The notes: generated by a model from the letters alone, not told the origin. Shown: positions 2,989-29,959, counted from the stretch's first letter. The stretch is 64,000 nucleotides of DNA from Alphaproteobacteria bacterium (GCA_965243135.1 OZ251539.1:4448001-4512000), one strand, 5' to 3'. Translations and numbers: made by a program.

Positions 2989-3014
2989 TTGACCTCACCC
3001 ACGAAACATCGTCG

Positions 3015-3815
3015 TCACCTTAATTCTCCACCATTGATCCCAACGGAGTTGCGTGCGTTTGTGGAGCCGAACCAAATATCCATTCCTGAGAATTTTATCT
3101 CCTCGGCACCACTTGGAAGCGCGAGCAAATCGAAAACCCCGCTATGACATTCAATCCACACCGCCGTTTCCGGCGACATCCACCTGATCGCATCCAGAAT
3201 GCGTTCGTGATCCTTGGCTAAATCTCGCGAGAAGATCGGTTCGTGATGAGCAATCCGGTTTCGCAAGGTTCTCAGATCGTTCAGTGGGCCGTGAGCCTGT
3301 TTTCGCGTCAGTTTCTCGCGATACGGAAACGCTTGGCGAAGCGCCGGCCGCCAAAGCGTCCTCTGGTAATTCGCCTTGCGTCCTGCGGGCATTCGCCCGC
3401 TAGGCCCGATGAGCGAAACCCAGAACCCGAACAACAGCTTAGCCACGAACGGACCGTTCCCGTCGCCGGAGTGCGCCAGTTTCGACCTCGCGTCCTCGAT
3501 CCGATCAAGTGCGCCCTTGTCGAGGCCTGCGCTCGGATTGTTGTACCACGCCGGGCCGTATCGTTCGGCGAGTCGTCCGTGCATGGCGTTTCGCAAGGTT
3601 ATTTCCAACGTCTGTAGTGGCCCGTAAAATGCGGCACTGATGTCGGTATTCCAGACATAGAGCCGTATCGCCTTTTCTGGATCGCCCCGAGTCGCGATGA
3701 GATAGGTATTCAGGCGCTCACGCGAGAGCGACACCTCAAGCTCGTGGAGACTATCTTGCGTATAGGAGAAGCCCTTGACATGCGCCCCGCTACCCATCAT
3801 GTTGCCCTCGTACAC
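3015..3815 (-). CDS. Abi_2 / AbiD-AbiF family HEPN RNase (start may be the ATG at ~3800)
   Basis: SLSRERLNTY...LYVWN..S..F...L..LEITLRN and the HEPN motif LRNRIAHHEPI. Confidence 0.8.
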   Translation of the reverse strand: MYEGNMMGSGAHVKGFSYTQDSLHELEVSLSRERLNTYLIATRGDPEKAIRLYVWNTDISAAFYGPLQTLEITLRNAMHGRLAERYGPAWYNNPSAGLDKGALDRIEDARSKLAHSGDGNGPFVAKLLFGFWVSLIGPSGRMPAGRKANYQRTLWRPALRQAFPYREKLTRKQAHGPLNDLRTLRNRIAHHEPIFSRDLAKDHERILDAIRWMSPETAVWIECHSGVFDLLALPSGAEEIKFSGMDIWFGSTNARNSVGINGGELR

Positions 3816-3853
3816 CCCGGACCCGCCTCTGCCTCTCGGTATGCGCCCGGGGT
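3814..3853 (-). ncRNA. Putative abiF-type structured RNA (antitoxin-like hairpin) at the 5' end of the Abi gene
   Basis: ACCCCGG (3814-3820) pairs with CCGGGGT (3847-3853). Minus-strand core GCGCATACCGAGAGGCA resembles RNA motifs recalled upstream of AbiF-family genes. Confidence 0.45.
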
Positions 3854-4262
3854 CTTGCTTTACGAACTCCCCCGGTTTTCACCTTTGCTGGCCGATTGCG
3901 CCTGGGTTGGGAGACCATCCGGCGGGCCGCTCTCCTCATCACCTTGCGAAACTCCGGCTCAAGATTCCGCAGGCGTTTCACCAAACCGCCGAGGATATCT
4001 TGCCGTTGTGACTGACCTGTTGCTGCTGCGTATGTTCGACCAACCGGACGGTTTCGAGTTCCTCGGCTGGACATGACGCAGGCTCGCCCCCACGCCGGAG
4101 ACGACCTTGCAAAGCCTCCGTTCACGCCGGGAATCGCAAAGTCGCTTGCGAGCGGCGTCCATGCGATCCCCGGCCGCCGCTGCGCCCGCCGCGCGGCGCT
4201 GAGGCCAGGCGCACTGACGCCGGACGCCCGGTTTCCACTTGCTTCGTTCAACATCTCCTTCT

Positions 4263-4310
4263 CCAACAAGGTTGTTGGCAACAATATCGTTGGAAAATGA
4301 CGGATGTCAA
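4263..4310 (-). promoter_or_regulatory. sigma70-like promoter overlapped by two tandem CAAC-N6-GTTG palindromes
   Basis: Minus-strand TTGACA (4305-4310), 18 nt, TATTGT (4281-4286). Palindromes at 4264-4277 and 4279-4292. Confidence 0.5.
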
Positions 4311-4825
4311 GCGGCAAATTCCGGTTTCCCGAAAAAATTCCAAGCCGCCGCACGGCGAACACGGCCCGGACACGGACGATGGCCTCGCGAAACGGCGGAA
4401 ACGCTGCGATTTCGCCAAGCGAAAACAGAGGGTGCCGCTCCAAGCCATCAAAAAAAGAGGATTATTCGCGAAAGCGGCCGCGGGCCGCTCCCGACCCGGA
4501 TCCCGCCGGAATATTCTGCTGGCCGCCTTGCCCCGGCGCGAGTTGGACTTCACGCCATCGCCTATCGCTTGCGGCGTGGCCTGCATCGACCGGAGTTGGC
4601 CGCCGCGATCCCCAAGGCTTCCCGACGGCGTCCATTTCGGAACCCGCCCGTCCTCCCCGTATCTCCATGCGCCGCACGCCGACTCGCGCGCGGAAAAGCG
4701 GAAGGCTCCAACGCCCCTCCCCCGGCGAACCGGAGACCGCGCGGATTCGGCGGCAGCGCAGAGTTCGCGGATGCCAGTCGAAGCTTTCCGGACGAAAGGC
4801 CGAAAACGCGGCGGCACCGCCGCGC

Positions 4826-7028
4826 CTTTCGTCAAATAATAGTTGATTCCATGAATCGGTGACGCTACTTTCGGCGTATGCAAGTTGGACTTCACCGTTT
4901 CCATGCGGACAGTATCGAGTGGTTCCGAGCGGCAGTCGCCGAGGGTGGTCGCACCCGGCGTCAGTTGGCCCACGGGCTGTGCGAGCGCGAGAACTGGCGC
5001 AATGAGAAGGGCGAACTTTGCCTCGCCTCGGCGCGACGGATCCTGCCGAAGCTCGCCGGGAAACTCGGGATCGCCTTGCCGCCGCCGCAGGAGCGCCTGC
5101 CGCAGAAGGCGCCGGCCCGGAATTTTCCGAACCTGTCGCTTCGCTGCAGTCTGGCGGAGGTCGGAGAAGTCGCGCTGGAACCGGTTTCTGGGAGCGCCGA
5201 CAAGGAGCGGTGGGCGATGGCAACCCCGCAGCGATGGATGCGTCCGCCGGGCGCGCAAAGGTGTTACTGGATCGTGTCGTCCCGTCATGGCCGACTGGGC
5301 GGCATCGCTTTCTGCGCCGCCAGTTGGCACCAGAAAGCGCGCGATGAGTTCATCGGCTGGTCGGCGGACGCACGGGTCGCCAACCTGCAAGGTCAACAAT
5401 AACCGGTTTCTGCTGTTGCCGGGGGTGCGCGTGCGCGGGCTTGCGTCGCACGTTCTCGACCTCGCGGCGACGCGACTGCCCGGCGATTGGGAAGCCGCCT
5501 ACGGCGTGCGTCCGGCCTACACTTACGTCTCTCCCGACCAGCGCTTGCTATCGCGCGGCAGGATGGGAGCGTTGCGGCAGGCCGACGTCGGGGTTGCCGC
5601 CAGGCGCCATGGAGAGGGGCGTCGCACGGTCGGTCGAAGCCGCTGGCCGCCGACTGGAAAGAGCGGCTGCGCCGGGAACCGGAACGGATGCTCGGCCTCG
5701 CCCCGGAGGCACCTCCGTCCGACGATTGGGCGGAATGGGACGCGGAACGCACCCGGACGGACGCATTCGCGGTGGTACGAATGGGGCGCGCATGGGAGGC
5801 ACGGCCCGGCGAACCGGTACCGGTGCCCGGACAAGGAAGATCAGAAAGCAGCCTACCGGCTGCTGTCGAATCCGAGGGTGAGCATGGAGCACGTTCTCGA
5901 GTCGCACAAGGAATGCATGGTCGAGCGCTGCCGCAAGGAGCGCGTGGTTCTAGCGGTCCAGGACACGACGATGCTGAATTACAACGGCCTGCAAGCCACC
6001 TGGTGCCGCTCGGCGGCGGCGGGTCGGGAACCAAAGGCATTGCCGCCCACTTCGGACTTGCGACCTCAAGACGCCCGCTCGGGGTCTTCGAGATCGACGC
6101 CACCATGCGCGACGACAAGGACGAAAGCGAGAGCGTCCGCTGGCCACTTCGACAAGGCGCAGGAAATCGCGCGCGCCTGCCCCGACACGCAGGTCATCAC
6201 CGTGTGCGACCGGGAAGGGGATGGAACTGCTGTCGAGGGCGGTCGCGGCGGGTGCCGGCCTGGTGGTGCGCGCCTGCCGCTCGAAGCGGCGGCGCGTGCT
6301 GTGCGAAGATGGCAGCAAAAAAGGGCTTTGGAACCACATGGCGGAACAGCCGGTGCTGACCCGGAGGTCGCTGAACCTCGCCGCCTGCGGCGGCAAGCGG
6401 GCGCGCAAGAAACGCGAGGTGACGCTTGACATCCGCGCCGCCCGCGTCCGGCTCGTGCCGCCCGGCGACAGGACCGGCGACGCGCCTCTCTCCATGCTCG
6501 CCGTGTCGGTCGCAGGACCGCAAGGCCTCGACTGGCTGTTGCTCACGACGGAGGGCAAACCCGAGAAAGACGACGCGGTGCGCGTCGTAAAGTGGTACGA
6601 ACGGCGCTGGACGGAATACTTCAAGGCCCTCAAGTCCGGCATGGGCATCGAAGACCGGCGGTTCGACGATGCCGACGACCTCCGAAAGTGCCTTGCTTTC
6701 GACGCCATTACCGCATGCCGGGTCTTCGACTTCCAGCGCATGGCGCGGGACAGGCCGGACGCCCCCGCCGCCGAAGTCGCGGACGAAGATGAAATTGCGG
6801 TGCTTTACCTTGCCGAACGAGGCATGGTCAAGAGCAGGCCGCCGCCCGAAAACCTCGACGTCCGGACCTTCGTGGTCGACGTGGGACGGCTCGCGGGCTT
6901 CATCCCAACGCCAGCCCTTGCCCGGGACCATCTGGCAGGGCTACGGCTACCTCAAGGCCTACGTTCAAATATACAAGGCGCTACGGAACAACGACATGCT
7001 CAAGGACTCGACAATGGGGGGATGAAAG
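4826..7028 (+). mobile_element. IS4-family (IS50/Tn5-like) insertion sequence, decayed
   Basis: Imperfect terminal IRs (CTTTCRTC-N5-ATWGTYGA) at 4826 and 7028. Exact 9-bp direct repeat CCGCCGCGC at 4817-4825 and 7029-7037. Confidence 0.85.
4878..7025 (+). pseudogene. Frameshifted DUF4338 (DruA-like)-IS4 transposase fusion
   Basis: Pieces in all three frames: ASWHQKARDEFIGWS / NNNRFLLLPGVRVRGLASHVL (DUF4338), KAAYRLLSN, VLAVQDTT, VCDREGD, WLLLTT, WYERRW.EYFKALKSG, LAGF. Confidence 0.85.
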
Positions 7029-7047
7029 CCGCCGCGCGGCCCGACCG

Positions 7048-7656
7048 CTATGCCGCCCAGATTTCCTCGACGATCGACTCCGAGGCGAGCGCCACCAGCG
7101 CCACGTCCGTGCGGCCGCCGTCGAATACGGCGACTTCGACGGCGAACCGGCGACGGTCGCCGACCAGCCGGTAGTGATCGAAGCCCTCCCCTCCCGGCAA
7201 ATCCGTCGCGGAACCCGGGTCGCCCTCGTGGCGGTAGCCTTGATGAGCCGCTTCCTGACGGTAGACCGGCGCGGTCCAACCCTCCAGTTCCGGCAGTTCC
7301 CGGCGCCGCTTCAAGGTCAGATTGGGCGGTTCGTCGGGGTCGAACAGTCGAGCGAACTTGTCCAGATCGAACAGGCGTTTCACCGTCGGCCGCTGAATCC
7401 GGAGCGCCACCGCCAGCGTGTCGCGCTCGTCCCGCCAGAGCTCGCGCCCGCCGTCGAACCCCAGCACGCGCCGAATCTTGCCCGCGCCGCCGAGGTCGAG
7501 AGCGTGCACCGAGGCGACCTGCAACTCGGCCTGCGACAACCCGTGGGGAGCGACGAAGCCGAACTTCACGAAATCGCCGGACCGGAGATCCCAGGCATGG
7601 GCTGCCTGGCGCGGCGGCGGTTCCTCCTTCCGGCCGAACAGGCGGCGCAACATCAC
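7048..7656 (-). CDS. YjfK/DUF2491-like protein of the PspA-associated operon
   Basis: 202-aa ORF overlapping the pspA stop by 4 nt; starts M..RLFGRK; position matches yjfIJK-type operons. Confidence 0.6.
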   Translation of the reverse strand: MMLRRLFGRKEEPPPRQAAHAWDLRSGDFVKFGFVAPHGLSQAELQVASVHALDLGGAGKIRRVLGFDGGRELWRDERDTLAVALRIQRPTVKRLFDLDKFARLFDPDEPPNLTLKRRRELPELEGWTAPVYRQEAAHQGYRHEGDPGSATDLPGGEGFDHYRLVGDRRRFAVEVAVFDGGRTDVALVALASESIVEEIWAA

Positions 7657-19784: not shown

Positions 19785-19932
19785 TTACGCGGGCAGTTTA
19801 CGTTGCGCTTCCGGATGCGCGCGGCCGGACCGCCGAACGATGCGCCGGTCTTCGCCGACGGAGCGCGGAGGCCCGCGCGGACGATCGCGGACAGCGCGGC
19901 GGCCGCCGGCCGGCCGATCCTCCGGAGGCCCG

Positions 19933-20841
19933 TCACAGCACCACCAGCATGAGCAACGGCAACGTCGCAAGCGAAATCACGGTGGAAATCAGGATCATGC
20001 CGGCGGTATCGGCGGGACTGCGGTCGAAGCGCTGGGCGAACAGAAAGTTATGCACGGCGACGGGCATGGAGCAGGCGATAATCAGAACGCCGCGTTCGGC
20101 GCCCTCCAGTTCGAGGAGAACGGACAGCGCATAGCCAACCACGAAGCCGATCGCCAGCCGGATAGCGGACACGCCGGCGTTCAACGCGATGCTCGGAACG
20201 CGGATTCCGGCGATGGCGACGCCGAGGGAAATGAGCATCAGCGGTATCGCCATACCGCCGACGAGGCGCGTGGCGTTGGCCAGCCATTCGGGAGGCTGGA
20301 TGCCCGCGAGCATGAAGAAGAGCGCGGCGGCAACGGCGTAGATGAGCGGATTGTTGTAGAGAAGGTCGGCGGCCAGACGGCCGGCGTAGATGCTCCACCC
20401 GACAACGAAACTGACCAGCGAGGACAGGACGAACACGCCGATCGCCAGCGCGAGTCCCTCGGGTCCGAACGCGAAGAGGCAGAGCGGGAGTCCCATGTTG
20501 CCGGTATTCGCGGAGGTGAACGCGGGCAGATAGGTGTGAACGGGCAGTTTCAGAAGCGCGATCACGGCGAAACCGGCCGCGATGAAGCTACAGAGCGCCA
20601 GACCGTAGGCTCCCGCGATCTTCGCCAGCGCCTCGGGACTGATCCGAAGTTCGGTCAGCGTCGAGAAGGCAAGGCACGGTATGCCGAGATAGAGCGCAAG
20701 CGCGCTCACCATCCGGGTATCGAAGGGGCGGCCGGTGCGGGCCCAGACGAAGCCTATCGCAGCGCATGCGAAAACCGGGGCCACGACCGCGAATATCTTG
20801 GAAATCAAGGAAACGCCGCCCCGTTTCGGTCGCGAGGCCAA
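19933..20841 (-). CDS. AEC (auxin efflux carrier) family transporter
   Basis: Multiple TM helices; NTGNMGLP, AIPLMLISLG, SMPVAV. Confidence 0.9.
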   Translation of the reverse strand: MASRPKRGGVSLISKIFAVVAPVFACAAIGFVWARTGRPFDTRMVSALALYLGIPCLAFSTLTELRISPEALAKIAGAYGLALCSFIAAGFAVIALLKLPVHTYLPAFTSANTGNMGLPLCLFAFGPEGLALAIGVFVLSSLVSFVVGWSIYAGRLAADLLYNNPLIYAVAAALFFMLAGIQPPEWLANATRLVGGMAIPLMLISLGVAIAGIRVPSIALNAGVSAIRLAIGFVVGYALSVLLELEGAERGVLIIACSMPVAVHNFLFAQRFDRSPADTAGMILISTVISLATLPLLMLVVL

Positions 20842-20931
20842 CCGCGGGACGGAAGCCGGCGCCGCAAAGGCGGCGGAACCGGCCGCGCAGCGGTCCGGGC
20901 GTTGCGGCGCGGACGGCGAGGTCCAATCACC

Positions 20932-21390
20932 CTACTCCTCCGTCAACGCCGCGAGATCGCTCATGTCCTCGATCATGCGGCGCCAGCGATCTTCGCCGAA
21001 AGCCGCGACGAGCCGGTCCTGCGCTTCCCTCCACACCGGCGTCGCGCGTTCGATGGCGACCTCGCCTGCCCCGGTGATCGACGCGACGCGTTCCCGGCGG
21101 TCGCTGCCGGGCGAGATCCGGACCAGCCCCCGGTCGGCGAGCACCTTGAGGTTTCGGGTCAGGGTCGTGCGGTCGAGCGCCAGATGCTCCGCGAGCCGGG
21201 TCGCCGACGCCGGCCCCATCATGGCCACCGCCCCGAGCATGGTGAACTGCGTCGCCTTTATTCCGCTGTCCGCCATGATGTCGTCGTAGAACTGGGTTAT
21301 CGCACGCGAGGCGCGGCGAACGTTGAAACACGTGCAGTGCCACGCAACGCGAACCTGGGTCGGGTTGGCAAGCGGATCGTTTTCGCTCAT
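20932..21390 (-). CDS. MarR family transcriptional regulator
   Basis: CTCFNVRRASRAITQFYD, LDRTTLTRNL, DRR. Confidence 0.92.
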   Translation of the reverse strand: MSENDPLANPTQVRVAWHCTCFNVRRASRAITQFYDDIMADSGIKATQFTMLGAVAMMGPASATRLAEHLALDRTTLTRNLKVLADRGLVRISPGSDRRERVASITGAGEVAIERATPVWREAQDRLVAAFGEDRWRRMIEDMSDLAALTEE

Positions 21391-21418
21391 ATGCGTGCAT
21401 TAACACGCATATGAGCGA
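21383..21418. promoter_or_regulatory. Perfect 15-bp inverted repeat over the marR start codon (probable operator)
   Basis: TCGCTCATATGCGTG-cattaa-CACGCATATGAGCGA. Confidence 0.7.
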
Positions 21419-21572
21419 CTCGTCCATCACTTTTTGGGCGAACGACACGCCGCGGCCTTCGCGCGGCGGCGGCGGAACGTCCCGACCGGCAGGCGCGGCC
21501 GCGGGAACCGCGCTTCGACATCCCGGACCCGCCGGGATAGGCTGGCGACGCGACGGTTCGGGAGACGGCGCG

Positions 21573-22139
21573 ATGGTGAGGCTGGACAAAATATACACCG
21601 GCGGCGGCGACGCCGGCCAAACCTCGCTCGGCGACGGCGCCCGGGTTTCGAAAGCGGCGGCGCGCGTCTGCGCCCAGGGCGACATCGACGAAACCAACGC
21701 CGCGATCGGGCTCGCGCGCCGTCATGCGGCACCGGTTTCGGCGGACGAAATCCTCGCCCGCGCGCAGAACGACCTGTTCGATCTTGGCGCGGACATCGCG
21801 CGGCCCGGGCGCGACGACGCCGACGGCCGCCTTCGCGTCAAGCCGGACCAGGTCGCCCGCCTCGAACGCGAAATCGACGCGATCAACGAGGACCTCTCGC
21901 CGCTCGCCTCCTTCGTGCTGCGCGGCGGAAACGATTTCGCGGCCTCGCTCCACTACGCCTGCACGGTATGCCGGCGCGCCGAACGCGCCGCCTGCGCCCT
22001 CGCCGCCGAAGAGGAGGTCAACCCGCAAGCCCTCGCGTACCTCAACAGGTTGTCGGACCTCCTTTTCGTCATGGCGCGCGCCGCCAACGACAGCGGCAAA
22101 GCCGACGTGCTCTGGAAACCGGGCGCAACCACGAGATGA
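21573..22139 (+). CDS. pduO: PduO-type ATP:cob(I)alamin adenosyltransferase
   Basis: KIYTGGGDAGQTSL, GDIDETN, QNDLFDLGAD, CRRAER, YLNRLSD. Confidence 0.92.
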   Translation: MVRLDKIYTGGGDAGQTSLGDGARVSKAAARVCAQGDIDETNAAIGLARRHAAPVSADEILARAQNDLFDLGADIARPGRDDADGRLRVKPDQVARLEREIDAINEDLSPLASFVLRGGNDFAASLHYACTVCRRAERAACALAAEEEVNPQALAYLNRLSDLLFVMARAANDSGKADVLWKPGATTR

Positions 22140-22766
22140 AGCCCTTTCGGCGAAATTCCGGACGATCAGGCGAACGTCCTGCCGCGGCTTTCCGTTGTTG
22201 CAGTTCTCTTCCGGTCGACCGCGTCCCCGGCAGCTGCGGTCTCAGGGTTGTCCGACCGCTTGCGCCCATCGTCGGACGGTCGATTTCGAGCAAGGTTTTC
22301 TCTCCTGAAACGTTGATGAGTTTTCCGCCGACGCCCGCTCGGGACAAGCCCGTTTCCTGCCAGCTTGCGCAGACGGCGGCTTTCGTCAATTCCTCCCCCT
22401 CCCCCCATGTCCCGCCATGACTCCCGCTCGCAGCTTGCCCTTGATTCGCGAGGCAGCGGCACTTGCGGTTGCGGGGGTTAGGGTTCGGGACGGAGATCGC
22501 CTTGGGACAAAGTTTCCGCAAGAGACTTTCTCGCCACTCGACGAAGGCCTCGCGCCCAGCCGATATGGCGGACGTCTCCGCCGAGAAAGTCGGCCACTGC
22601 AGCTCGGTTCTCGATCTTTCCGTGACAGGTCCTTCTTTCTGCTGTATGGTATGTTCGCTCGCGTTGCTTGTTCGGCGTTTCGCCATATATTGTTCTTATA
22701 CTGCAGGAACGCCGACAGGCTAGCGGCAGTACGGCCGCAGCCAGCGAGATTGGAGACGGAAACAAC

Positions 22767-23222
22767 ATGAACAAAGACTTGGAATATTTCGTCGACGGCA
22801 AGCCGTTTTCAATTGCGAAACCGGAACCGACCGTCGCGGAAATACTGGCCCGCGCGGAGGTATCCATCCAACAGTTTTACCTTGTGTCGGCGGATGGAAC
22901 GGAATACCGCGAGCCGGACAAGACGATCAAATTACGTTCGAGCGACCGGTTCGAGACGAAAAAGCGAACGGATACGAGGCCGGTTTCTAATACCTACACC
23001 GTCAATGGAGAAATCCAGACCACGGAACGCCACTCGCTAGCCGTGGAAACGATTCTGAAAACTGCCGGCAAGGCGGCCAGCATCGACGTTACGCAAATCA
23101 ACAGTTATTTTCTTGAAAACCTCGCCGACGGCCGTAAATACGAGAAGCTTTCCGATCAGGTGGCAATCCAAGACGGCGACAAATTTCTGGCCGTTCACAT
23201 TGGAAGAACGCCGGTAGCATGA
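22767..23222 (+). CDS. Multi-ubiquitin-domain protein (two tandem beta-grasp domains)
   Basis: Two repeats of Y.V[DN]G...T..EIL..A...Y.L......Y....I....D.F; ends HIGRTPVA; GGAG upstream. Confidence 0.75.
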   Translation: MNKDLEYFVDGKPFSIAKPEPTVAEILARAEVSIQQFYLVSADGTEYREPDKTIKLRSSDRFETKKRTDTRPVSNTYTVNGEIQTTERHSLAVETILKTAGKAASIDVTQINSYFLENLADGRKYEKLSDQVAIQDGDKFLAVHIGRTPVA

Positions 23223-23599
23223 TTCCACTCAGAGAAATCTCCTCGGAATTACGCGCTCTCGGATACCAGTCCGAGATCGTGGCAAACAGCGAGTTCGGAG
23301 GATGCAGCGCCGTCTTGTTCGATTATCCAGTCGCCACAGGCAGACACAAAAACCATACGTTCAGACTCGGCATCGGTTTCCAGGAGGAGGGATATCCGGA
23401 ATATCCGCCCCATTTCGTGTATGTTGCCGACCTTCCCAACCCGCAACTCCCGATACATACCTCTTTCCGTTACGATGATGCGGAATGGTCAGCGTTCAGC
23501 GTACCGCCCAGCGACTTCTGGGACGGCCTCCCGTTCCAAGACAAAAACATGAAGACCTACGTTTATCGGCACCTTGCAAGATTCTGGAGTCAGGTTTGA
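23219..23599 (+). CDS. Prokaryotic E2/UBC-like protein (no Cys in the expected active-site region)
   Basis: DYPVATG, GYPEYPPHF, WSAFSVPP, NMKTYV..HL; ATGA overlap with the Ubl gene. Confidence 0.7.
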   Translation: MIPLREISSELRALGYQSEIVANSEFGGCSAVLFDYPVATGRHKNHTFRLGIGFQEEGYPEYPPHFVYVADLPNPQLPIHTSFRYDDAEWSAFSVPPSDFWDGLPFQDKNMKTYVYRHLARFWSQV

Positions 23600-25065
23600 G
23601 GTACGATGCCGTTCTGACCGAACAAGTCCATGAAAAGGCGTGCGCGCTCCTTCTCAAGCATGCGCGGGAAGGTCAGGCGCAAGAGGAACTGTCTTTTGCC
23701 CTGTGGCGGCCGAGTACGGGGGCGACCCGGAAATCGGCCCTTATATTCGACATCATTCCACCCGCTGAAGGCGAACGTCATCTCCACGGAAACGCCAGCT
23801 TCGAGCCCGGCTACCTGACGCGCGCCATCAGACTTGCCTGCGTTGAAAAATCCGGCCTAGCGTTCATGCACAACCACCTCGCCAACGGCTGGCAGGAAAT
23901 GAGTCCCGAGGACGAAATCGCAGAAAGGGACCGCATCTCGCCGCCAGCGCGCGCATGCGGATTTCCATTGGTTGGTTTGACGTTAGGAACGGACGGTGGA
24001 TGGAGCGCTCGTTTCTGGACATGGGACGGTCGCCGCTTCAAACTATCCTGGTGCGATAAAGTCCGGGTTACCGGACGAAAACAGCGCATTACCTTCAACG
24101 ACCATAACGCGCCTCCACCTCGCCGACGCGCTATGCTGCGTAGAACCATCGACACATGGGGCGAAGCGCGACAGCACGACCTCGCCCGCCTTCGAGTCGG
24201 CGTGGTCGGCGTCGGGAGCGTAGGGTCCATGGTGGCCGAGACATTAGCAAGAATCGGTATAGAGAAGATTGTGCTCATCGACCCGGATCGGGTGGAAACG
24301 CACAATATCGACCGGTTGCTTCACGCCAGGAGGAAGGACATCGGAAAACACAAGGTGGAACTTACCGCACGATGCCTGAAGGCCGGCGCGACGGCAGAGA
24401 ACTTCGACGTATCCGTGCACAGAGAGTTCATTCAGCGAAAGAGCGCCTACCTTGCGGCTCTCGATTGCGACATCCTGTTTTCTGCGGTGGATCGTCCTCT
24501 ACCGAAGGACTTGCTGAACCGCATCGCTTACGCTCACTGCATACCGGTGATTTTCGGCGGCGTTTTCGTTGACAATAAACCCGATGGATCGTTGGGACAG
24601 GCAGCGTGGAGCGTGGTGACGGCGGGCCCCGACAGGCGCTGTCTTCGATGCGACGGCCAATATAATACTTCGGAGGTCGCGATGGAGCGGGACGGCTCTC
24701 TGGACAAGGCTAGCTACGTTCGACAAGCGGCGGCAGCGGATGGTATGCTGCCCAATCAGAACGTGTTTCCATTTAGCGCAAATCTAGCGAGCTTCATGAT
24801 AATTGAAATGGTGCGCCTCGTGGCGTCGGACGATTGGTGGCCGGACATGGGCGGTAAGCTGCACTACAGCATGATACCTAGCCGTTTGCGCACCGAGCAG
24901 GGACAATGTTCGGTCAGTTGTTCCGTCAGCAGCAGTTTGACTCTCGGGGATCTGTACCGGTATCCTTTCCTCTCCGCCGACAAGTCGATCAACCGGACAT
25001 CGAGAACCTTTCTCCGGCCTCTTAGAGAGCTGATATCGAGGTTTCCGATCAGGAGACAGCGCTGA
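23596..25065 (+). CDS. JAB/MPN peptidase - ThiF/E1 adenylating enzyme fusion
   Basis: Probable TTG start overlapping the E2 stop (GGAG RBS). N-terminal E..HNH-x8-S-x2-D; E1 GVGSVG, DPDRVETHNIDR, VD, CLRC, C-terminal CSVSC. Confidence 0.85.
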   Translation: MRYDAVLTEQVHEKACALLLKHAREGQAQEELSFALWRPSTGATRKSALIFDIIPPAEGERHLHGNASFEPGYLTRAIRLACVEKSGLAFMHNHLANGWQEMSPEDEIAERDRISPPARACGFPLVGLTLGTDGGWSARFWTWDGRRFKLSWCDKVRVTGRKQRITFNDHNAPPPRRRAMLRRTIDTWGEARQHDLARLRVGVVGVGSVGSMVAETLARIGIEKIVLIDPDRVETHNIDRLLHARRKDIGKHKVELTARCLKAGATAENFDVSVHREFIQRKSAYLAALDCDILFSAVDRPLPKDLLNRIAYAHCIPVIFGGVFVDNKPDGSLGQAAWSVVTAGPDRRCLRCDGQYNTSEVAMERDGSLDKASYVRQAAAADGMLPNQNVFPFSANLASFMIIEMVRLVASDDWWPDMGGKLHYSMIPSRLRTEQGQCSVSCSVSSSLTLGDLYRYPFLSADKSINRTSRTFLRPLRELISRFPIRRQR

Positions 25066-26309
25066 TGGGAAAAATCATCGAATTTCGATTGCGGGACGTA
25101 CGATGCTTTGACGGTGAACAGTCCGCCAAACTGGGCCGAATCACCTTGCTTGTAGGCGAAAACAGTGCGGGAAAATCAACCTTCATGGGTTGTTACCAAG
25201 CCTTTGCAAAACTAGCCAATCTGCTCGATCTCGGCGAGGAAAACCATTTCAACGCTCCCCCATTCCGGATGGGTTCCTTCGGTACGGTCGTTCGAGCGGG
25301 GAAAACCGATTTCACCATCGGGGGCATCTTTGAAAATCATTGTCATACTGACGCCGCATTTACGTTCGTCGCGGGGGACGGGGACAAACCCGTTGAGCAG
25401 GAAGTTCGTTTCCGCTTCAATGACAAACAAGGCGGAAATCATGAAATCGGTATCATCCACAAGTCGCCCAAACGCGATATCTTGACATTCGAAGGGCCGA
25501 ATTTCCACTTTGATCTGGACAGAAGCGAGATCTCATATATTCCTATATCGACGTGGTTGTCACGCTATGTTCGGTTTGGCTATTTACCTTTCCGCGGCGA
25601 ACCAGCCGATTTCAGGGCGCGCAACGACGTTTCGGAAAAAGACGAAATCGAGTTCGCCAAATTCATAGGCTTCTTCCGATCAAGTTTCGACTTTCCCGGT
25701 CCCCCGCCGTTCACGGTTAACGCTCTCGATCCCCATTTCCCGGCCCGCGAACGTGTTTATTCCGCATTGCCTTCCTATCTAGAAGACCTCGAATCCGGTT
25801 TGCGATCCGAATTCGCAGCAATCGGGTCGATAATGAAACTGTGGAACGACATTACGACCGAGGCCGCCCCAGACGGCTCGCAAGTATTGGTTGACGTTGC
25901 GGGCGGCTTACGCAATCTGGTCGATGTCGGCTATGGCGTTCACAGCCTATTGCCGCTGATCAATGCCATCTTGGGATCGAAATCGGTACTGTTGCTTCAG
26001 CAGCCGGAGATTCATGTCCATCCGATGGCGCAAGCCCGTTTGGCGCAGTTTATGGCTGAAAATGATCGAGACTTTATCATCGAAACGCATAGCGAACACT
26101 TTGTGGACCGCTTCAGGATATGCGTCATGGACGGCATTCTGCGGCCGGAGGATCTGTCCATCGTTTACTTTGAACCTCATGCGGACGGAACGAAGTGTCG
26201 AATTCACAGCATTTCCGTGGATGCTGAAGCTAATTTGTTGGACGTGCCAAAGAGTTATAGATCATTCTTCGTTGAGGAGACCGAGCGGTTGTTGGGTCTA
26301 GAAAGGTGA
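25065..26309 (+). CDS. ABC-type/AAA_21 ATPase with a DUF3696-like C-terminus
   Basis: Walker A GENSAGKS, signature LVDVGYGV, Walker B-like LLLQQPEIHVHP, ETHSEH; TGATG overlap with E1. Confidence 0.85.
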   Translation: MGKIIEFRLRDVRCFDGEQSAKLGRITLLVGENSAGKSTFMGCYQAFAKLANLLDLGEENHFNAPPFRMGSFGTVVRAGKTDFTIGGIFENHCHTDAAFTFVAGDGDKPVEQEVRFRFNDKQGGNHEIGIIHKSPKRDILTFEGPNFHFDLDRSEISYIPISTWLSRYVRFGYLPFRGEPADFRARNDVSEKDEIEFAKFIGFFRSSFDFPGPPPFTVNALDPHFPARERVYSALPSYLEDLESGLRSEFAAIGSIMKLWNDITTEAAPDGSQVLVDVAGGLRNLVDVGYGVHSLLPLINAILGSKSVLLLQQPEIHVHPMAQARLAQFMAENDRDFIIETHSEHFVDRFRICVMDGILRPEDLSIVYFEPHADGTKCRIHSISVDAEANLLDVPKSYRSFFVEETERLLGLER

Positions 26310-26315
26310 GAATTT

Positions 26316-26783
26316 ATGTGCATGAAGATCATCATAGATGCATGTGCATTTGGCAGTGTCTTGGATAGCGACAGAGATTCCATCTTGCGCAAATGGATCG
26401 ACAATCGAAATTGTATCGTCGTATACACGGAATCAGGAACCTATGGGGAGGAATTACGCGGAAGCCGCAGGATGCTGCGACTGTTTGGGGAATATCGCCG
26501 CAACGGCTCTGCGGAACTTGTGGATAATAACAGATTGCGGGCTGTAGCAGGGGCGTTGCAAAATAAGGTTGTTCGCTCGAACGACGAACACATATTGCAT
26601 CTGGCCTTGGCCAGCAAAGCGCTGATGCTACGAACGGAAGAACGCGCAAATTTACGGGCAGATTTTGTCGATAAAGATTTGTTGCCGAAAATCGGCAGGA
26701 AAAAGCGCGCCGTATACCCGGAAAGCGGATCTCCGAGGGTCAAGCGACAGTTTCTTGATCGAAGAAGATGCCCCAGCACATGA
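26316..26783 (+). CDS. PIN-like domain protein (putative nuclease effector)
   Basis: N-terminal IIIDAC, SNDEHILHLALASKA, L..DF; 6 nt after the ATPase. Confidence 0.6.
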   Translation: MCMKIIIDACAFGSVLDSDRDSILRKWIDNRNCIVVYTESGTYGEELRGSRRMLRLFGEYRRNGSAELVDNNRLRAVAGALQNKVVRSNDEHILHLALASKALMLRTEERANLRADFVDKDLLPKIGRKKRAVYPESGSPRVKRQFLDRRRCPST

Positions 26784-27085
26784 AGCTGAATGGCTGCCGG
26801 TTGGAAAATTGTCGCCTGCTACCTACATGTTCGTGTATCCGTGGGCGGCCGTTTATCCGAAACGTTCGACTGGTCGAGAAGGAGGTCGCGTTGGAGGCGG
26901 ACATTGTTCCGTTCTCTTTTCCGCGCATTTCTCCGAGAACGACCGCGCCATCGTCGAGATTTGTCCGATTCCGTCTTTCGGTTGCGCTTTCAACCCGACA
27001 GGAAGCGTTGAATTCGTTCGGGAAGAAATGGTAAGTGAAACCAGACCGCGGCGCGGGACGACAAGGCGATCAAGGAGGGCATGGA

Positions 27086-27460
27086 ATGACAACGACGTTT
27101 CTCGGACTCAGGACCACGATCTACAAGGTCGGCGACCTTGATCGCGCCAAGGAATGGTATGCCGAAGCGTTCGGCGTCGAACCGTATTTCGACCAGCCGT
27201 CCTATGTCGGCTTCAGCGTCAGGGGATACGAGCTCGGCCTGATGCCCGACGACGGAACGCCTGCGGACAAGCCCGACAACGTGCTTAGCTACTGGGGCGT
27301 GGAGAATATCCGCGAAGAGACCGGCAGGCTGATCGCGCTTGGAGCGACCGAGCACGAAAAACCGGTCAACGTGGGCGGAGAAATCATGGTGGCGTCCGTC
27401 CGGGATCCCTGGGGCAACGTGATCGGCCTGATCCGCAATCCCGAGTTCAAGGCCGAATGA
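27086..27460 (+). CDS. VOC/glyoxalase family protein
   Basis: VGDLDRAKEWY, YWGV, DPWGNVIGL; RBS AAGGAGG. Confidence 0.9.
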   Translation: MTTTFLGLRTTIYKVGDLDRAKEWYAEAFGVEPYFDQPSYVGFSVRGYELGLMPDDGTPADKPDNVLSYWGVENIREETGRLIALGATEHEKPVNVGGEIMVASVRDPWGNVIGLIRNPEFKAE

Positions 27461-28319
27461 CCGGCCCGGCGCCCCTGCCTCCGACCGCCTCGGCGGTCAT
27501 GCCGACGGCGCCGGCGCGATCCGTTGCCCAGAGAGCGATGCGCGCGCCGTCCGGCCTGCCCCACAGCGTGAAATCCCCATCGTCGTATATCGGATGTCCG
27601 GAACGAAACGAAAATCCGGCGATCCTGAATTCGGGCCTCTTGCGCCGAACCAGTTCCAGCATGAGCCTCGCGATCAGCGCGCCCTGCACCAGAAGGCCCG
27701 GATAGCCTCGCGCGCGGGCGAAATCCCGGTCGTAGTGAACGCGGTGGCTGTTGAAAGTCACCGCCGAATGCCGAAACATCAGAACCGGATCGGGAGCGAC
27801 GGTTTCCGACCAGACGGCGGCGGCGGGCGGTTCGCCGGCAGGCCGGCTCCTCGACCCGCGCGGCGCTCCCGACGGCCGGAAAATGACGTCGTTCTCCTCC
27901 GTCACGGCGAGTCCCGCCGGGCCGTAAATGCGATGACGCACCAGTCCGACGACGAACGCGCCCCCTCTCCCCTGCTTCAGATCGAACGACGCCATTTCCG
28001 ACTCCTTGCGGATGCGGTCTCCGATCCGGAGCGCCCGATCGAACCGGTAGCGCGCGCCGCCGAACAGCCTGACCGGATACTCGGGCGCGGCCGGAAGCAG
28101 TTCCTCGTCTCTGGCGAGTCCGTCGGGGCCGAGTCTGGACGGCGGCAGGCTGGCCGAGCAAAACAGCCCGTGCCAGAGCGGCGGAAGGGGATCTCCCTCG
28201 ACCGGGGCCGGCTCTTCGCGGCCGAACGCCGCCATCAGCCGAACGACCGGCGCAATCGTCACCGTATCTTCCGCCTCGACGAGACGGCCGCGCGCCGCGC
28301 TCAGCGATGCCGGAATCAT
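27447..28319 (-). CDS. Double hot-dog (MaoC/FAS1-like) acyl-CoA dehydratase/hydratase
   Basis: LPPLWH, LGPDG, RLFGG, FRHSAVTFNSHRVHYD, YPGLLVQG. Confidence 0.82.
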   Translation of the reverse strand: MIPASLSAARGRLVEAEDTVTIAPVVRLMAAFGREEPAPVEGDPLPPLWHGLFCSASLPPSRLGPDGLARDEELLPAAPEYPVRLFGGARYRFDRALRIGDRIRKESEMASFDLKQGRGGAFVVGLVRHRIYGPAGLAVTEENDVIFRPSGAPRGSRSRPAGEPPAAAVWSETVAPDPVLMFRHSAVTFNSHRVHYDRDFARARGYPGLLVQGALIARLMLELVRRKRPEFRIAGFSFRSGHPIYDDGDFTLWGRPDGARIALWATDRAGAVGMTAEAVGGRGAGPVIRP

Positions 28320-28565
28320 GGTCGTTCTCCTCCGCGGGCATCCGCCTTCCATCCCGGACGACGATCAGGTCCGCCGCGCCCTCGACACTTCCGTTGGCCG
28401 GCCTCGACGCCGCGCCGAAAAACGGCAATGCTCATGCTTCCGGACGTCAAGACGGGGTCTGCGGACGGGCCGGGTTGCGCCGAGTCGCGCGTTCGCCGCG
28501 CCCCCAACGAGCGCGACGGATCCATCCGTTCTCTGGCGCGCCTCCGCTCAAGCGCTCCGACCTCT

Positions 28566-29771
28566 TCAAACCCGTTCGATCACCGTCGCTATTCCTTGTC
28601 CGACGCCGATGCACATGGTGCAAAGCGCCCGCTTCCCGCCGTTGCGCTCGAGTTCGTAGAGCGCGGCGGCGATCAGCCTGGCTCCCGACATGCCGAGAGG
28701 GTGGCCGAGCGCGATGGCGCCGCCGTTGGGATTGATTCGCGGATCGTCGTCGGCAAGGCCGAGTTCGCGAGTGCAGGCGAGAGCCTGGGCGGCGAAAGCC
28801 TCGTTGAATTCCATAACGTCCATGTCGTCGAGCGCGAGGCCCGCGCGCTCCAGCGCGCGGCGAGTGGCGGGCACGGGACCGATGCCCATGATGCGCGGCG
28901 GCACCCCGGCGGTCGCGGCGGCGACGACGCGAGCGCGCGGCGTCAGGCCGTGCTTCCGCGCCGCCTCTTCGTCGGCAAGAACGAGCGCGGCGGCACCGTC
29001 GTTGACGCCCGACGAGTTGCCAGCCGTAACGGTGCCGCCTTTCCTGAAGGCAGGGCGCAGTTTCTTGAGGTCTTCCATGGCGGTGCCGTGACGCGGATGT
29101 TCGTCGGTATCGACCGTCACGGGGTCGCCGCGGCGGCGCGGCACCGCGACCGGCACGATCTCCGCCGAGAGGCGCCCTTCCTTCTGAGCGGCTTCGGCCT
29201 TGCGCTGGCTCCAGTGCGCGAACCGATCCTGGTCCTCGCGCGTGATCTGGCGCTCTTCGGCGAGATTCTCGGCGGTCTCTCCCATGGCGTCGATGCCGTA
29301 CATCTCTTCCATCTTGGGATTCACGAAGCGCCAGCCGATGGTCGTATCGTGGATCTCGGCCTTGCGGGAAAACGCTGTATCCGATTTGGCCATCACGAAG
29401 GGGGCGCGCGACATGCTCTCGACGCCGCCGGCGACGACGAGGCCGGCCTCCCCGGTCCGGATCGCCCGCGCGCCCTGAGCCGTCGCTTCCATTCCGGATC
29501 CGCAGAGGCGGTTCACGGTGGCGCCGCCGACTTCGAGCGGCAGACCTGCAAGCAGGCTGGACATCCGCGCGACATTGCGGTTGTCCTCGCCTGCTTGGTT
29601 CGCGTTTCCGAAATAGACGTCGTCGGCCGCTTCCCAGTCGACCCCTTCGTTGCGGTCCATCAGGGCGCGAATGGGGACCGCGCCGAGATCGTCGGTGCGA
29701 ACGGCGCTGAGCGCGCCGCCGTAGCGGCCGATGGGAGTGCGAACTGCGTCGCAGACGAAAGCTTCCGGCAT
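28566..29771 (-). CDS. pcaF: 3-oxoadipyl-CoA thiolase (PcaF/PaaJ)
   Basis: [49 protein letters not shown]. Confidence 0.92.
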
Positions 29772-29870
29772 GACAGAATCCCGACAGTTGCAGCGGAGCG
29801 CATTCTTGTCGATGCGCCGTCGTGCGGCAAGGCCGTTTCGCGCGGAACGGAGGCGCATCGCCGGAAAGGG

Positions 29871-29959
29871 GGCGCTCGCGCTCGCGCGCGGAGATCCGCA
29901 TTCCGGAATCTCCATAGATTCTCGTAGTGCCGGCGCTCGCGCTCGCGCGCGGAGATCCG
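29871..29959. repeat. 28-bp exact direct repeat pair with a 33-bp spacer (61-bp period)
   Basis: GGCGCTCGCGCTCGCGCGCGGAGATCCG at 29871-29898 and 29932-29959. Confidence 0.85.

Follow-up and report, generated by a model that had tools for sequence, protein, structure and literature searches.

The described systems closest to the locus reported here are the Bub operons, 544 of which have been catalogued (10.1101/2024.11.21.623953, 10.1101/2024.11.21.623966), and Menshen, a validated defence system (PMC12065111). Bub operons by definition contain a DUF6527 protease, and those of Type I have the ubiquitin-like protein (Ubl) fused to the E2 (10.1101/2024.11.21.623953). The E1 of this system (BubCD) has no catalytic cysteine and uses a tyrosine of its crossover loop, the E2 (BubB) uses a serine, both intermediates are oxyesters, and the Ubl BubA ends in Gly229 (10.1101/2024.11.21.623953). 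Oxyester conjugation by Bub-type (6E) operons has been demonstrated, and the Bub study reports that its authors found no target (10.1101/2024.11.21.623953). In Menshen, the ATPase NsnB combines a degenerate Walker B motif with a GxG signature, and the PIN-like (inPIN) domains of NsnC, in which catalytic residues are missing, have been proposed to serve for binding (PMC12065111). Here we describe an island in a 64,000-nucleotide stretch of the genome of an Alphaproteobacteria bacterium (GCA_965243135.1, OZ251539.1:4448001-4512000), the whole of which we call the window. The island carries five genes, G1 to G5, which we confirmed to be a real, conserved and mobile system that combines these two known kinds, and a functional coupling between its halves is plausible. 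Our reading is that a Bub-like conjugation cassette (G1-G3) recruited a PIN nuclease (G5) held by an ATPase (G4) in place of DUF6527. The original prediction, made from the sequence of the window, had taken this combination to be undescribed, and our search of the literature on bacterial Ubl conjugation and on ATPase-PIN pairs, with subscription journals and supplements outside its scope, likewise returned no account of it.

The conjugation cassette and its relation to Bub operons

The five genes lie on the plus strand at 22767-26783 of the window as coupled open reading frames (ORFs) that leave no space for separate promoters (Table 1). Our ORF and junction analysis agrees with the gene boundaries that had been predicted: G1 and G2 meet in an ATGA overlap and are two separate ORFs both in the window and in the orthologous loci described below, G2 and G3 meet in a TTGA overlap, G3 and G4 meet in a TGATG with a one-base overlap (the A is common to both), and a gap of 6 nucleotides (nt) separates G4 from G5. 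The TTG start of G3 gives the N-terminus MRYDAVLTE, in agreement with its orthologues, and the first ATG of G5 gives an N-terminus beginning with MC that is invariant across the G5 family. The predicted gene identities (di-Ubl, E2-like, JAB-E1, ATPase and PIN-like) were borne out by Pfam and PADLOC matches, alignments and fold searches.

Table 1. Positions, in window coordinates, of the five genes and of the island that carries them
Feature	Position	Strand	Description
G1	22767-23222	+	151 aa; Ubl of two tandem beta-grasp repeats; C-terminus ...TPVA
G2	23219-23599	+	126 aa; E2/UBC fold; conserved Cys absent, Ser94 invariant
G3	23596 (TTG)-25065	+	489 aa; fusion of JAB/JAMM peptidase and E1-like adenylyltransferase
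G4	25065-26309	+	414 aa; NsnB-like ABC ATPase; Walker A intact, Walker B LLQQPE
G5	26316-26783	+	155 aa; PIN-fold nuclease-like protein; acidic residues kept
Island	22134-27092	.	~4.96 kb, low GC; 630-nt leader, five genes and ~300-nt tail
Leader	22134-22766	+	~630 nt before G1, part of the island; recognised gene absent

A kinship to Bub-type operons had also been predicted and was supported, as the top solved match of G3 was BubCD and the top fold match of G2 was BubB. G3 matched ThiF in Pfam (7.8e-31), and its nearest solved relative was Citrobacter BubCD (9ea4), matched with an E-value of 1.3e-20 over both domains at profile positions 67-330. The JAMM motif of G3 is intact, with E30, H92, H94, S103, and D106 all invariant in the orthologue alignment, and the GxGxxG glycine loop and the cysteine pairs 349/352 and 438/442 are invariant as well. 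There is no cysteine between C352 and C438 in the window protein, and in this region Y356 is invariant and Y374 nearly so; the alignment to BubCD ends at position 330, short of Y370, so Y356 and Y374 are not aligned to it. This pattern is suggestive of the E1 part of Bub-type chemistry, i.e., an E1 that would have no cysteine and would have a crossover tyrosine.

For G2, we compared an AlphaFold2 model (predicted local distance difference test score, pLDDT, of 93.7) with the top 1000 chains from Foldseek using VIA-align. The top structural match was Citrobacter BubB (9eae_C; Z 9.3, root-mean-square deviation 3.6, 114 residues aligned), and the remaining 49 rows shown were all UBC/UEV domains (Z 7.7-5.5). 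Foldseek found no match to the G2 model in the PDB at E <= 0.001, and a search of PDB sequences with the G2 profile gave weak UBC hits only (E ~0.2). The only invariant residues among 20 G2 sequences from all clades are G41, W90, and S94, and no cysteine is conserved. By analogy with the Bub E2, transfer would probably proceed through an oxyester on Ser94; we were unable to locate in G2 residues equivalent to the His and Asp partners of that serine in Bub.

The Pfam match of G1 to Multi_ubiq was weak (E-value 0.0042, under the cut-off), and an ESM Atlas feature search, which gives a lead rather than a test, returned Multi_ubiq clusters for 30 of 30 hits (score 0.93). The two halves of G1 align to one another (E-value 0.003), and the single-domain Ubls found in other clades align to its C-terminal half, with the ending TPVA/TPVS retained between clades. 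A few of the orthologues have short extra C-terminal tails.

The island has three features in common with Type I Bub (Citrobacter BubAB-BubCD-BubE; formerly 6E.1/DUF6527 operons): a JAB-E1 fusion, a Cys-less E2 with an invariant serine, and a multi-beta-grasp Ubl. An E1 crossover region without cysteine and with a conserved tyrosine is a possible fourth. It differs in that the Ubl and the E2, which are fused as BubAB in Type I Bub, are separate genes here, and in that G1 ends in ...TPVA whereas BubA ends in glycine (10.1101/2024.11.21.623953). Bub operons of Type I and of Type II alike include the serine protease BubE (DUF6527/PF20137), whereas none of the five proteins matches PF20137 (E <= 0.1), and the island has the NsnB-like ATPase and the PIN protein after the E1 in DUF6527's stead. 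The five-gene system works like Bub but is not a member of Bub as defined, since the DUF6527 protease and the Ubl-E2 fusion are both absent. Ubl-type conjugation enzymes together with a JAB are also found in the antiphage operons type II CBASS (Cap2 E1-E2, Cap3 JAB) and Bil (BilABCD), and in type II CBASS the conjugation step tunes an effector pathway (10.1101/2024.11.21.623953). However, the CD-NTase of CBASS is absent here, and a free Ubl, unlike in CBASS, is present; Bil has a separate JAB and an E1 with tandem inactive/active adenylation and Cys domains (10.1101/2024.11.21.623953), whereas G3 is a JAB fusion with one ThiF. Neither of these two systems has an ATPase-PIN pair.

The ATPase-PIN pair and its relation to Menshen

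G4 matched AAA_21 (2.2e-15) and AAA_15 (3.1e-09) in Pfam, and its top PADLOC model was NsnB of Menshen (9.6e-36), with PDC-M55A, HEC-03B, AriA, GajA, and PtuA scoring lower. We aligned 17 G4 sequences (39-87% identity to the window protein) and found G31, E32, G36, K37, S38, L310, L311, Q312, Q313, P314, E315, H317, H319, P320, E340, H342, and S343 to be invariant, with N33 and T341 nearly so. Deviations from the Walker A (GENSxGKST) and H-loop (ETHS) motifs thus occur only at N33 and T341, the GxG signature is invariant, and the Walker B reads LLQQPE in the 17 sequences. The Walker B of this ATPase family normally has an acidic pair. As judged from the residues alone, the QQ of the Walker B suggests that G4 is probably poor at ATP hydrolysis and may be a nucleotide-binding switch rather than a fast hydrolase. 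G4 is closest to NsnB, and both have the GxG signature and a degenerate Walker B (PMC12065111). NsnB has a C-terminal DUF3696 (PMC12065111), whereas Pfam DUF3696 had no match in G4; PF12476 was found in one of the 120 listed G4 relatives (P0351).

The AlphaFold2 model of G5 (pLDDT 95.6) was searched by unfiltered VIA-align against 48,161 chains, and the first 29 rows were PIN-domain or PIN-like proteins (Z 8.8-6.5, 101-129 residues aligned), with 1y82 (Z 8.8), Nmd4 (Z 8.7), and VapC toxins (Z 8.6-8.0) at the top. The best rows from Foldseek against the PDB were PIN proteins too but were weak (E-value 0.014, none at E <= 0.001), and an orthologue of G5 in locus L021 scored 22.6 bits against Pfam PF01850, for which the cut-off is 23.6 (E-value 1.7e-4). 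Beyond its one PIN-fold domain, G5 has only a short basic tail; a C-terminal nuclease domain is absent. A profile of G5 identified 1032 representative proteins at E <= 0.001, 242 of them at E <= 1e-10, and the 150 listed relatives are 78-217 aa long, mostly ~135-185 aa. The residues D8, S88, D90, and D116 do not vary among 34 sequences with 31-73% identity to the window protein, and E46 and D109 are almost invariant; we assigned the active-site residues from the motif pattern (IIDA, SNDxH, TxD) and not from superposition. From these residues the PIN domain of G5 looks active, unlike the inactive PIN of NsnC. An alternative is that G5 is an inactive adaptor like the inPIN of NsnC, in which case Ubl conjugation would be the output, for instance by tagging a phage protein as Bil does, and the ATPase-PIN pair would recognise the target. 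The Menshen domains described above set a precedent for this (PMC12065111), G5 itself has no match in Pfam or PADLOC (including PADLOC NsnC), and position 109 is Glu rather than Asp in the window protein and its closest group. We consider this improbable, since the invariant D8, D90, and D116 and the nearly invariant E46 and D/E109 are the PIN acidic positions, which an inactive domain is not expected to retain across so diverged a set.

G5 also has two cysteines that are invariant in the 34 sequences, namely Cys2, which directly follows the start Met, and Cys152, which lies near the C-terminus; candidate roles for them include a metal site and a disulfide. We considered them as a feature specific to Ubl-linked copies and rejected this, as they occur in most stand-alone relatives too; Lys125 (in the segment 'LLPK'), which we had considered as a Ubl acceptor peculiar to linked copies, was rejected as well, since it is absent in L016 and L021.

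We then modelled the complex of two G4 copies and one G5, each with its own alignment, in three runs and with three controls. The assembly reached an ipSAE of 0.76 (0.76-0.77 in the three runs), and the best of the three controls scored 0.00. In the calibration of the tool, which holds only roughly for a prediction of this kind (own alignments, 2+1 assembly), 116 of 157 solved complexes attain the mark, against 2 of 215 mismatched pairs. The runs had at least 91% of their contacts in common, with a partner pLDDT of at least 84, and contacts were predicted between residues 16-73 of G5 and the C-terminal stretch of G4, to which one copy contributes 344-348 and 388-412 and the second copy 403-412. 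The model supports G5 being clamped by the C-termini of two G4 protomers. An AlphaFold 3 model of Menshen has two NsnB DUF3696 domains clamping the PIN-like domain of NsnC, which its authors likened to the solved Septu and PARIS assemblies (PMC12065111), and our predicted G4-G5 geometry equals this modelled clamp. The ATPase-plus-nuclease logic of the original prediction is therefore favoured both by the likeness of G4 to NsnB and by ATPase-PIN binding in a fold prediction with controls.

The system is nevertheless not Menshen, since NsnA is absent and G5 is not an NsnC. The ParB-DUF262/ParBDB domains of NsnA are absent from the five proteins and from the leader ORF, and the Ubl cassette lies upstream instead, and NsnC consists of an inactive PIN and an effector nuclease domain (PMC12065111), whereas G5 is a lone PIN with acidic residues. 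PARIS (AriA-AriB), Septu (PtuA-PtuB), and Gabija (GajA) likewise have an AAA_15/AAA_21 ATPase that holds or controls a nuclease (PMC12065111), but their nuclease is Toprim or HNH rather than PIN, G4 is smaller, and it is only here that conjugation machinery is attached.

Linkage and insertion of the five genes

Relatives of G3 are numerous (at least 1293 at E <= 1e-20 among 8000 scored candidates), and with an alignment of 15 of them we obtained 80 metagenome loci, against which the five window proteins were run (tblastn, E <= 1e-3). Eight of these loci (L015-L021 and L033) have a G3 relative with 55-63% identity; since L016-L019 are near copies, the eight comprise five distinct sequences. G1, G2, G3, and G4 occur in the window order in all eight, and G5 follows in all six that are long enough, L020 and L033 stopping inside G4. 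G3 and G4 overlap by 1 or 4 nt in five of five distinct sequences, namely in the window and in all four distinct orthologous loci with this junction (L015, L016, L021, and, on a TTG candidate start, L020), and the gaps between G4 and G5 are 6-13 nt across the window and the orthologous loci. All five window proteins have their nearest relatives in the L016 group (50, 57, 59, 49, and 37% identity for G1 to G5), and the identity of G4 and G5 to the five-gene orthologues goes down to 28-49%, indicating that the pair has been attached over a long divergence. In a quick IQ-TREE maximum-likelihood tree of 62 JAB-E1 rows, the five-gene rows formed one clade (SH-aLRT 99), and its sister was a clade with the three-gene form (L022, L024, L027, and L030); matches shorter than 1150 nt (including the frameshifted L033), rows with internal stops (L009, L032, and L044), and duplicates (L016-L018, of L019) were left out of this tree. 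The Ubl of the five-gene clade has an additional N-terminal beta-grasp repeat, which that of the sister clade does not have.

The five-gene system is not a one-off: for each of G3 and G4, public data list over 120 clusters (90% identity) of close relatives. Moreover, 29 of the 120 listed G3 relatives match one of the 120 listed G4 relatives in exact longest-contig size, which points indirectly to a shared contig. Ten plasmid records had relatives, all with 35-40% identity and none from the five-gene clade, and close relatives were not found in viral contigs. Scanning genome contigs with the single G3 protein gave one true relative (L005, 44% identity), which is without the ATPase-PIN pair, and a metagenome scan with an alignment of G5 found nothing. 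As a separate observation on L033, G1 and G3 are each split over two frames there (L033:6936-9292), which makes this locus either a decaying copy or an assembly error.

The island stands out from its surroundings in GC content (0.49-0.58 across 22500-27000 vs 0.62-0.72 in the flanks), and is flanked on the left by a cobalamin adenosyltransferase gene (21411-22139) and on the right by a glyoxalase-family gene. We compared positions 19800-29900 of the window with 30 relatives and retrieved the site from four genomes of the same genus. The listed matches in the 30 relatives were to both flanks, and none of the matches listed fell in positions 2335-7293 of the query. In all four same-genus genomes the homology breaks at 22124-22133, at the end of the cobalamin adenosyltransferase gene, and returns at 27093-27101, at the start of the glyoxalase-family gene, and the flanks are separated by just 46-105 nt, which indicates that everything between was inserted as one unit. 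The leader is missing from these empty sites as well. The GC profile, the flanking gene identities, and the empty sites in relatives together confirm what had been described as a lower-GC insert between housekeeping genes. The five-gene block is a single insertion in this genome, and the system is a horizontally acquired, mobile unit.

A search of 401 sampled genomes from the phylum of the window found the G2 protein in two, one being the window's own genome (at three places) and the other having a weak match with stops, and the five-gene form in one. The invariant order in eight of eight loci, the single clade, and the single insertion support the conclusion that the five genes are one conserved composite unit and not a chance neighbourhood. 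That part of the original prediction stands; the part in which conjugation gates the nuclease is a proposal, which we take up in the next section.

At the boundaries of the island we found neither a tRNA gene nor convincing direct or inverted repeats, and there was no integrase among the ORFs scanned. The leader has one weak sigma-70-like site at 22622-22650, which is a consensus match only, and its 117-aa plus-strand ORF (22417-22770) has no Pfam match. The nominal ORF of the glyoxalase-family gene (27035-27460) has its first GTG at 27035, and homology with relatives starts only from 27093-27101, so the gene probably starts later than 27035 and the right end of the island probably lies inside the nominal ORF. 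In addition, the N-terminus of a public protein of 110 aa (P0006) resembles that of the minus-strand ORF at 27447-28352, and its C-terminus has 70% identity to that of G5; a relative may thus carry a copy of the island that has been rearranged or has decayed.

Proposed function and alternative explanations

We hold with moderate confidence that during infection the state of the G4-G5 complex is altered by Ubl conjugation, which the JAB reverses, and that the PIN nuclease is thereby freed or activated. By this scheme the JAB-E1 fusion G3 would adenylate the C-terminus of the tandem beta-grasp Ubl G1 and hand it to the Cys-less E2 G2, probably via the Ser94 oxyester as in Bub, and G2 would attach it to a target; the JAB domain would trim Ubl tails, take the tag off, or both. 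G4 would bind ATP and hold the small, presumably active PIN nuclease G5 between the C-terminal helices of its two protomers. The Ubl cassette would take the position of the NsnA sensor of Menshen, giving a logic of sensor or regulator, transducer, and effector. Tagging of a phage protein, of G4, or of G5 would then switch the ATPase, and the PIN nuclease, once released or activated, would cut RNA; the infected cell would be stopped, and the JAB peptidase would reset the switch. That tagging gates the nuclease, and in this direction, is what we infer from the gene content, as is RNA as the substrate of G5; a defence role (phage defence or abortive infection) seems most likely. A narrower version, in which a Cys-free E1-E2 relay tags either the ATPase-PIN complex itself or a phage protein read by the ATPase, an active PIN RNase is released, and the JAB resets it, is offered tentatively.

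If this narrower version is true, this would be the first bacterial free Ubl that controls an effector enzyme, and Bub-type chemistry would gain a measurable biological output. Through the putative built-in effector, the conjugation step would have a readout in toxicity, RNA cleavage, or phage protection.

The ATPase-PIN pair also occurs apart from the cassette. A G5-family profile matched in 3 of the same 401 genomes, including the window's own. In the two foreign genomes a PIN-like gene lies directly 3' of an NsnB-like ATPase gene (PADLOC 4.3e-41 and 1e-37), with no Ubl, E2, or E1 matched near either pair and housekeeping genes as neighbours. The window's genome has a second pair ~100 kb downstream, outside the window (L113:7383-9171; G000:C1:4576383-4578171), with an ATPase of 438 aa (30% identical to G4) and a PIN-like protein of 156 aa; this pair has its own low-GC islet of ~2 kb (GC 0.54-0.56 vs 0.63-0.70) and no adjacent Ubl, E2, or E1. 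In the stand-alone pairs, as in G4 and G5, the Walker B reads QQPE and the PIN-like protein starts with MC, for which reason the QQ Walker B was rejected as a mark of the Ubl-linked form.

Several observations weigh against the coupling that we propose. The other 72 of the 80 loci, in which the G3 relative has 38-52% identity, have no matches to G4 and G5, and the three stand-alone pairs (two foreign, one in the window's own genome) indicate that the ATPase-PIN pair can exist without the Ubl cassette. In G5 we found no residue or insert that is both specific to Ubl-linked copies and conserved. The score of the G4-G5 model may partly come from likeness to solved ATPase-nuclease assemblies. G3 has further invariant cysteines (C153, C291, and C315) outside the crossover loop, so a thioester route at the E1 step is possible. 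Finally, according to the Bub study, no Bub operon was found to protect E. coli from phage (10.1101/2024.11.21.623953), and no other defence gene adjoins the island in the window.

The 72 loci without the pair and the three stand-alone pairs, together with the QQPE and MC... start common to linked and solo pairs and with the common clustering of defence genes, favour a different explanation, namely that two independent systems are co-transcribed without cross-talk: a three-gene Ubl cassette and a two-gene ATPase-PIN module for defence or of a toxin-antitoxin-like kind. We consider this rather unlikely. Independent systems would not readily account for the invariant order with a stop-start overlap placed exactly at the G3/G4 module boundary in five of five distinct sequences, for the single clade on the E1 tree, for a nearest relative shared by all five proteins at G4 and G5 identities this low, or for the extra N-terminal Ubl repeat that sets the five-gene clade apart from its sister. 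The original prediction had named separation of the pair from the Ubl genes in other genomes as what would speak against one composite, and the outcome was half of that: the pair is missing from most E1 loci and occurs alone three times, but its linkage is invariant within the orthologous clade. The stand-alone pairs and the linked clade together show that the ATPase-PIN pair is an independent module, of which one lineage has been fixed behind a Ubl cassette. An NsnB-type ATPase and a PIN protein are thus a free-standing module, and the front ends that can drive it differ: ParB-DUF262 in Menshen, the Ubl cassette in the five-gene system, and none that is recognisable in the stand-alone pairs. 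This bears on how modular defence systems get assembled.

The last two of the opposing points bear on a further possibility, that the five genes are one system with a role other than defence, as a host stress-response or RNA-turnover switch or as an addiction module of the island, with Ubl tagging controlling a PIN RNase. According to the Bub study, an antiphage phenotype has not been demonstrated for any Bub-type operon (10.1101/2024.11.21.623953), PIN proteins are a typical kind of toxin in toxin-antitoxin pairs (VapC being among the fold matches of G5), and the island sits between housekeeping genes. Even so, we regard a non-defence role as unlikely, given the patchy, horizontal spread (one of the 401 phylum genomes, none of the four same-genus genomes), the restriction enzyme neighbours at two of the three longer orthologous loci, and the origin of the closest named ATPase family in a validated defence system (PMC12065111). 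In the three five-gene loci with long flanks, L015 has a GmrSD restriction enzyme next to it as well as a zeta-toxin-like kinase, L021 adjoins an MmeI-type fragment, and the neighbours of L016 are all unnamed.

In other clades the cassette adjoins a patatin and a CD-NTase, HipA, AbiE, Fic, DUF3892, a helix-turn-helix-peptidase M78 protein, or a Schlafen-like nuclease. In the first of these cases (L044:5426-9593) a distant three-gene Ubl/E2/JAB-E1 cassette lies directly 5' of the patatin phospholipase and the CD-NTase, a CBASS-like pair, and is another instance of a cassette abutting an effector module.

The window's genome has related genes at three further places. A paralogous cassette (L009:4941-8548; G000:C1 ~5797.9-5801.5 kb) has Ubl-like, E2-like, and JAB-E1 genes, with an E1 46% identical to G3, and is followed by a 333-aa DUF2971 protein (weak PADLOC PDC-S31 match) rather than by an ATPase-PIN pair. 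A third E2-like gene, 39-42% identical to G2, is on the minus strand at L014:7972-10062 (G000:C1 ~5913.9-5916.1 kb), with a small upstream ORF, a downstream 398-aa ORF without a Pfam match, and no recognisable E1. A six-frame search of the whole genome found a single DUF6527, at C1:57354-57533, 4.4 Mb from the island and beside a different E1-like gene. This BubE-type DUF6527 lies just downstream of that separate E1-like gene (L114/L003; G000:C1:56363-57533), and the genome therefore probably also carries a canonical Bub operon at that distance from the island.

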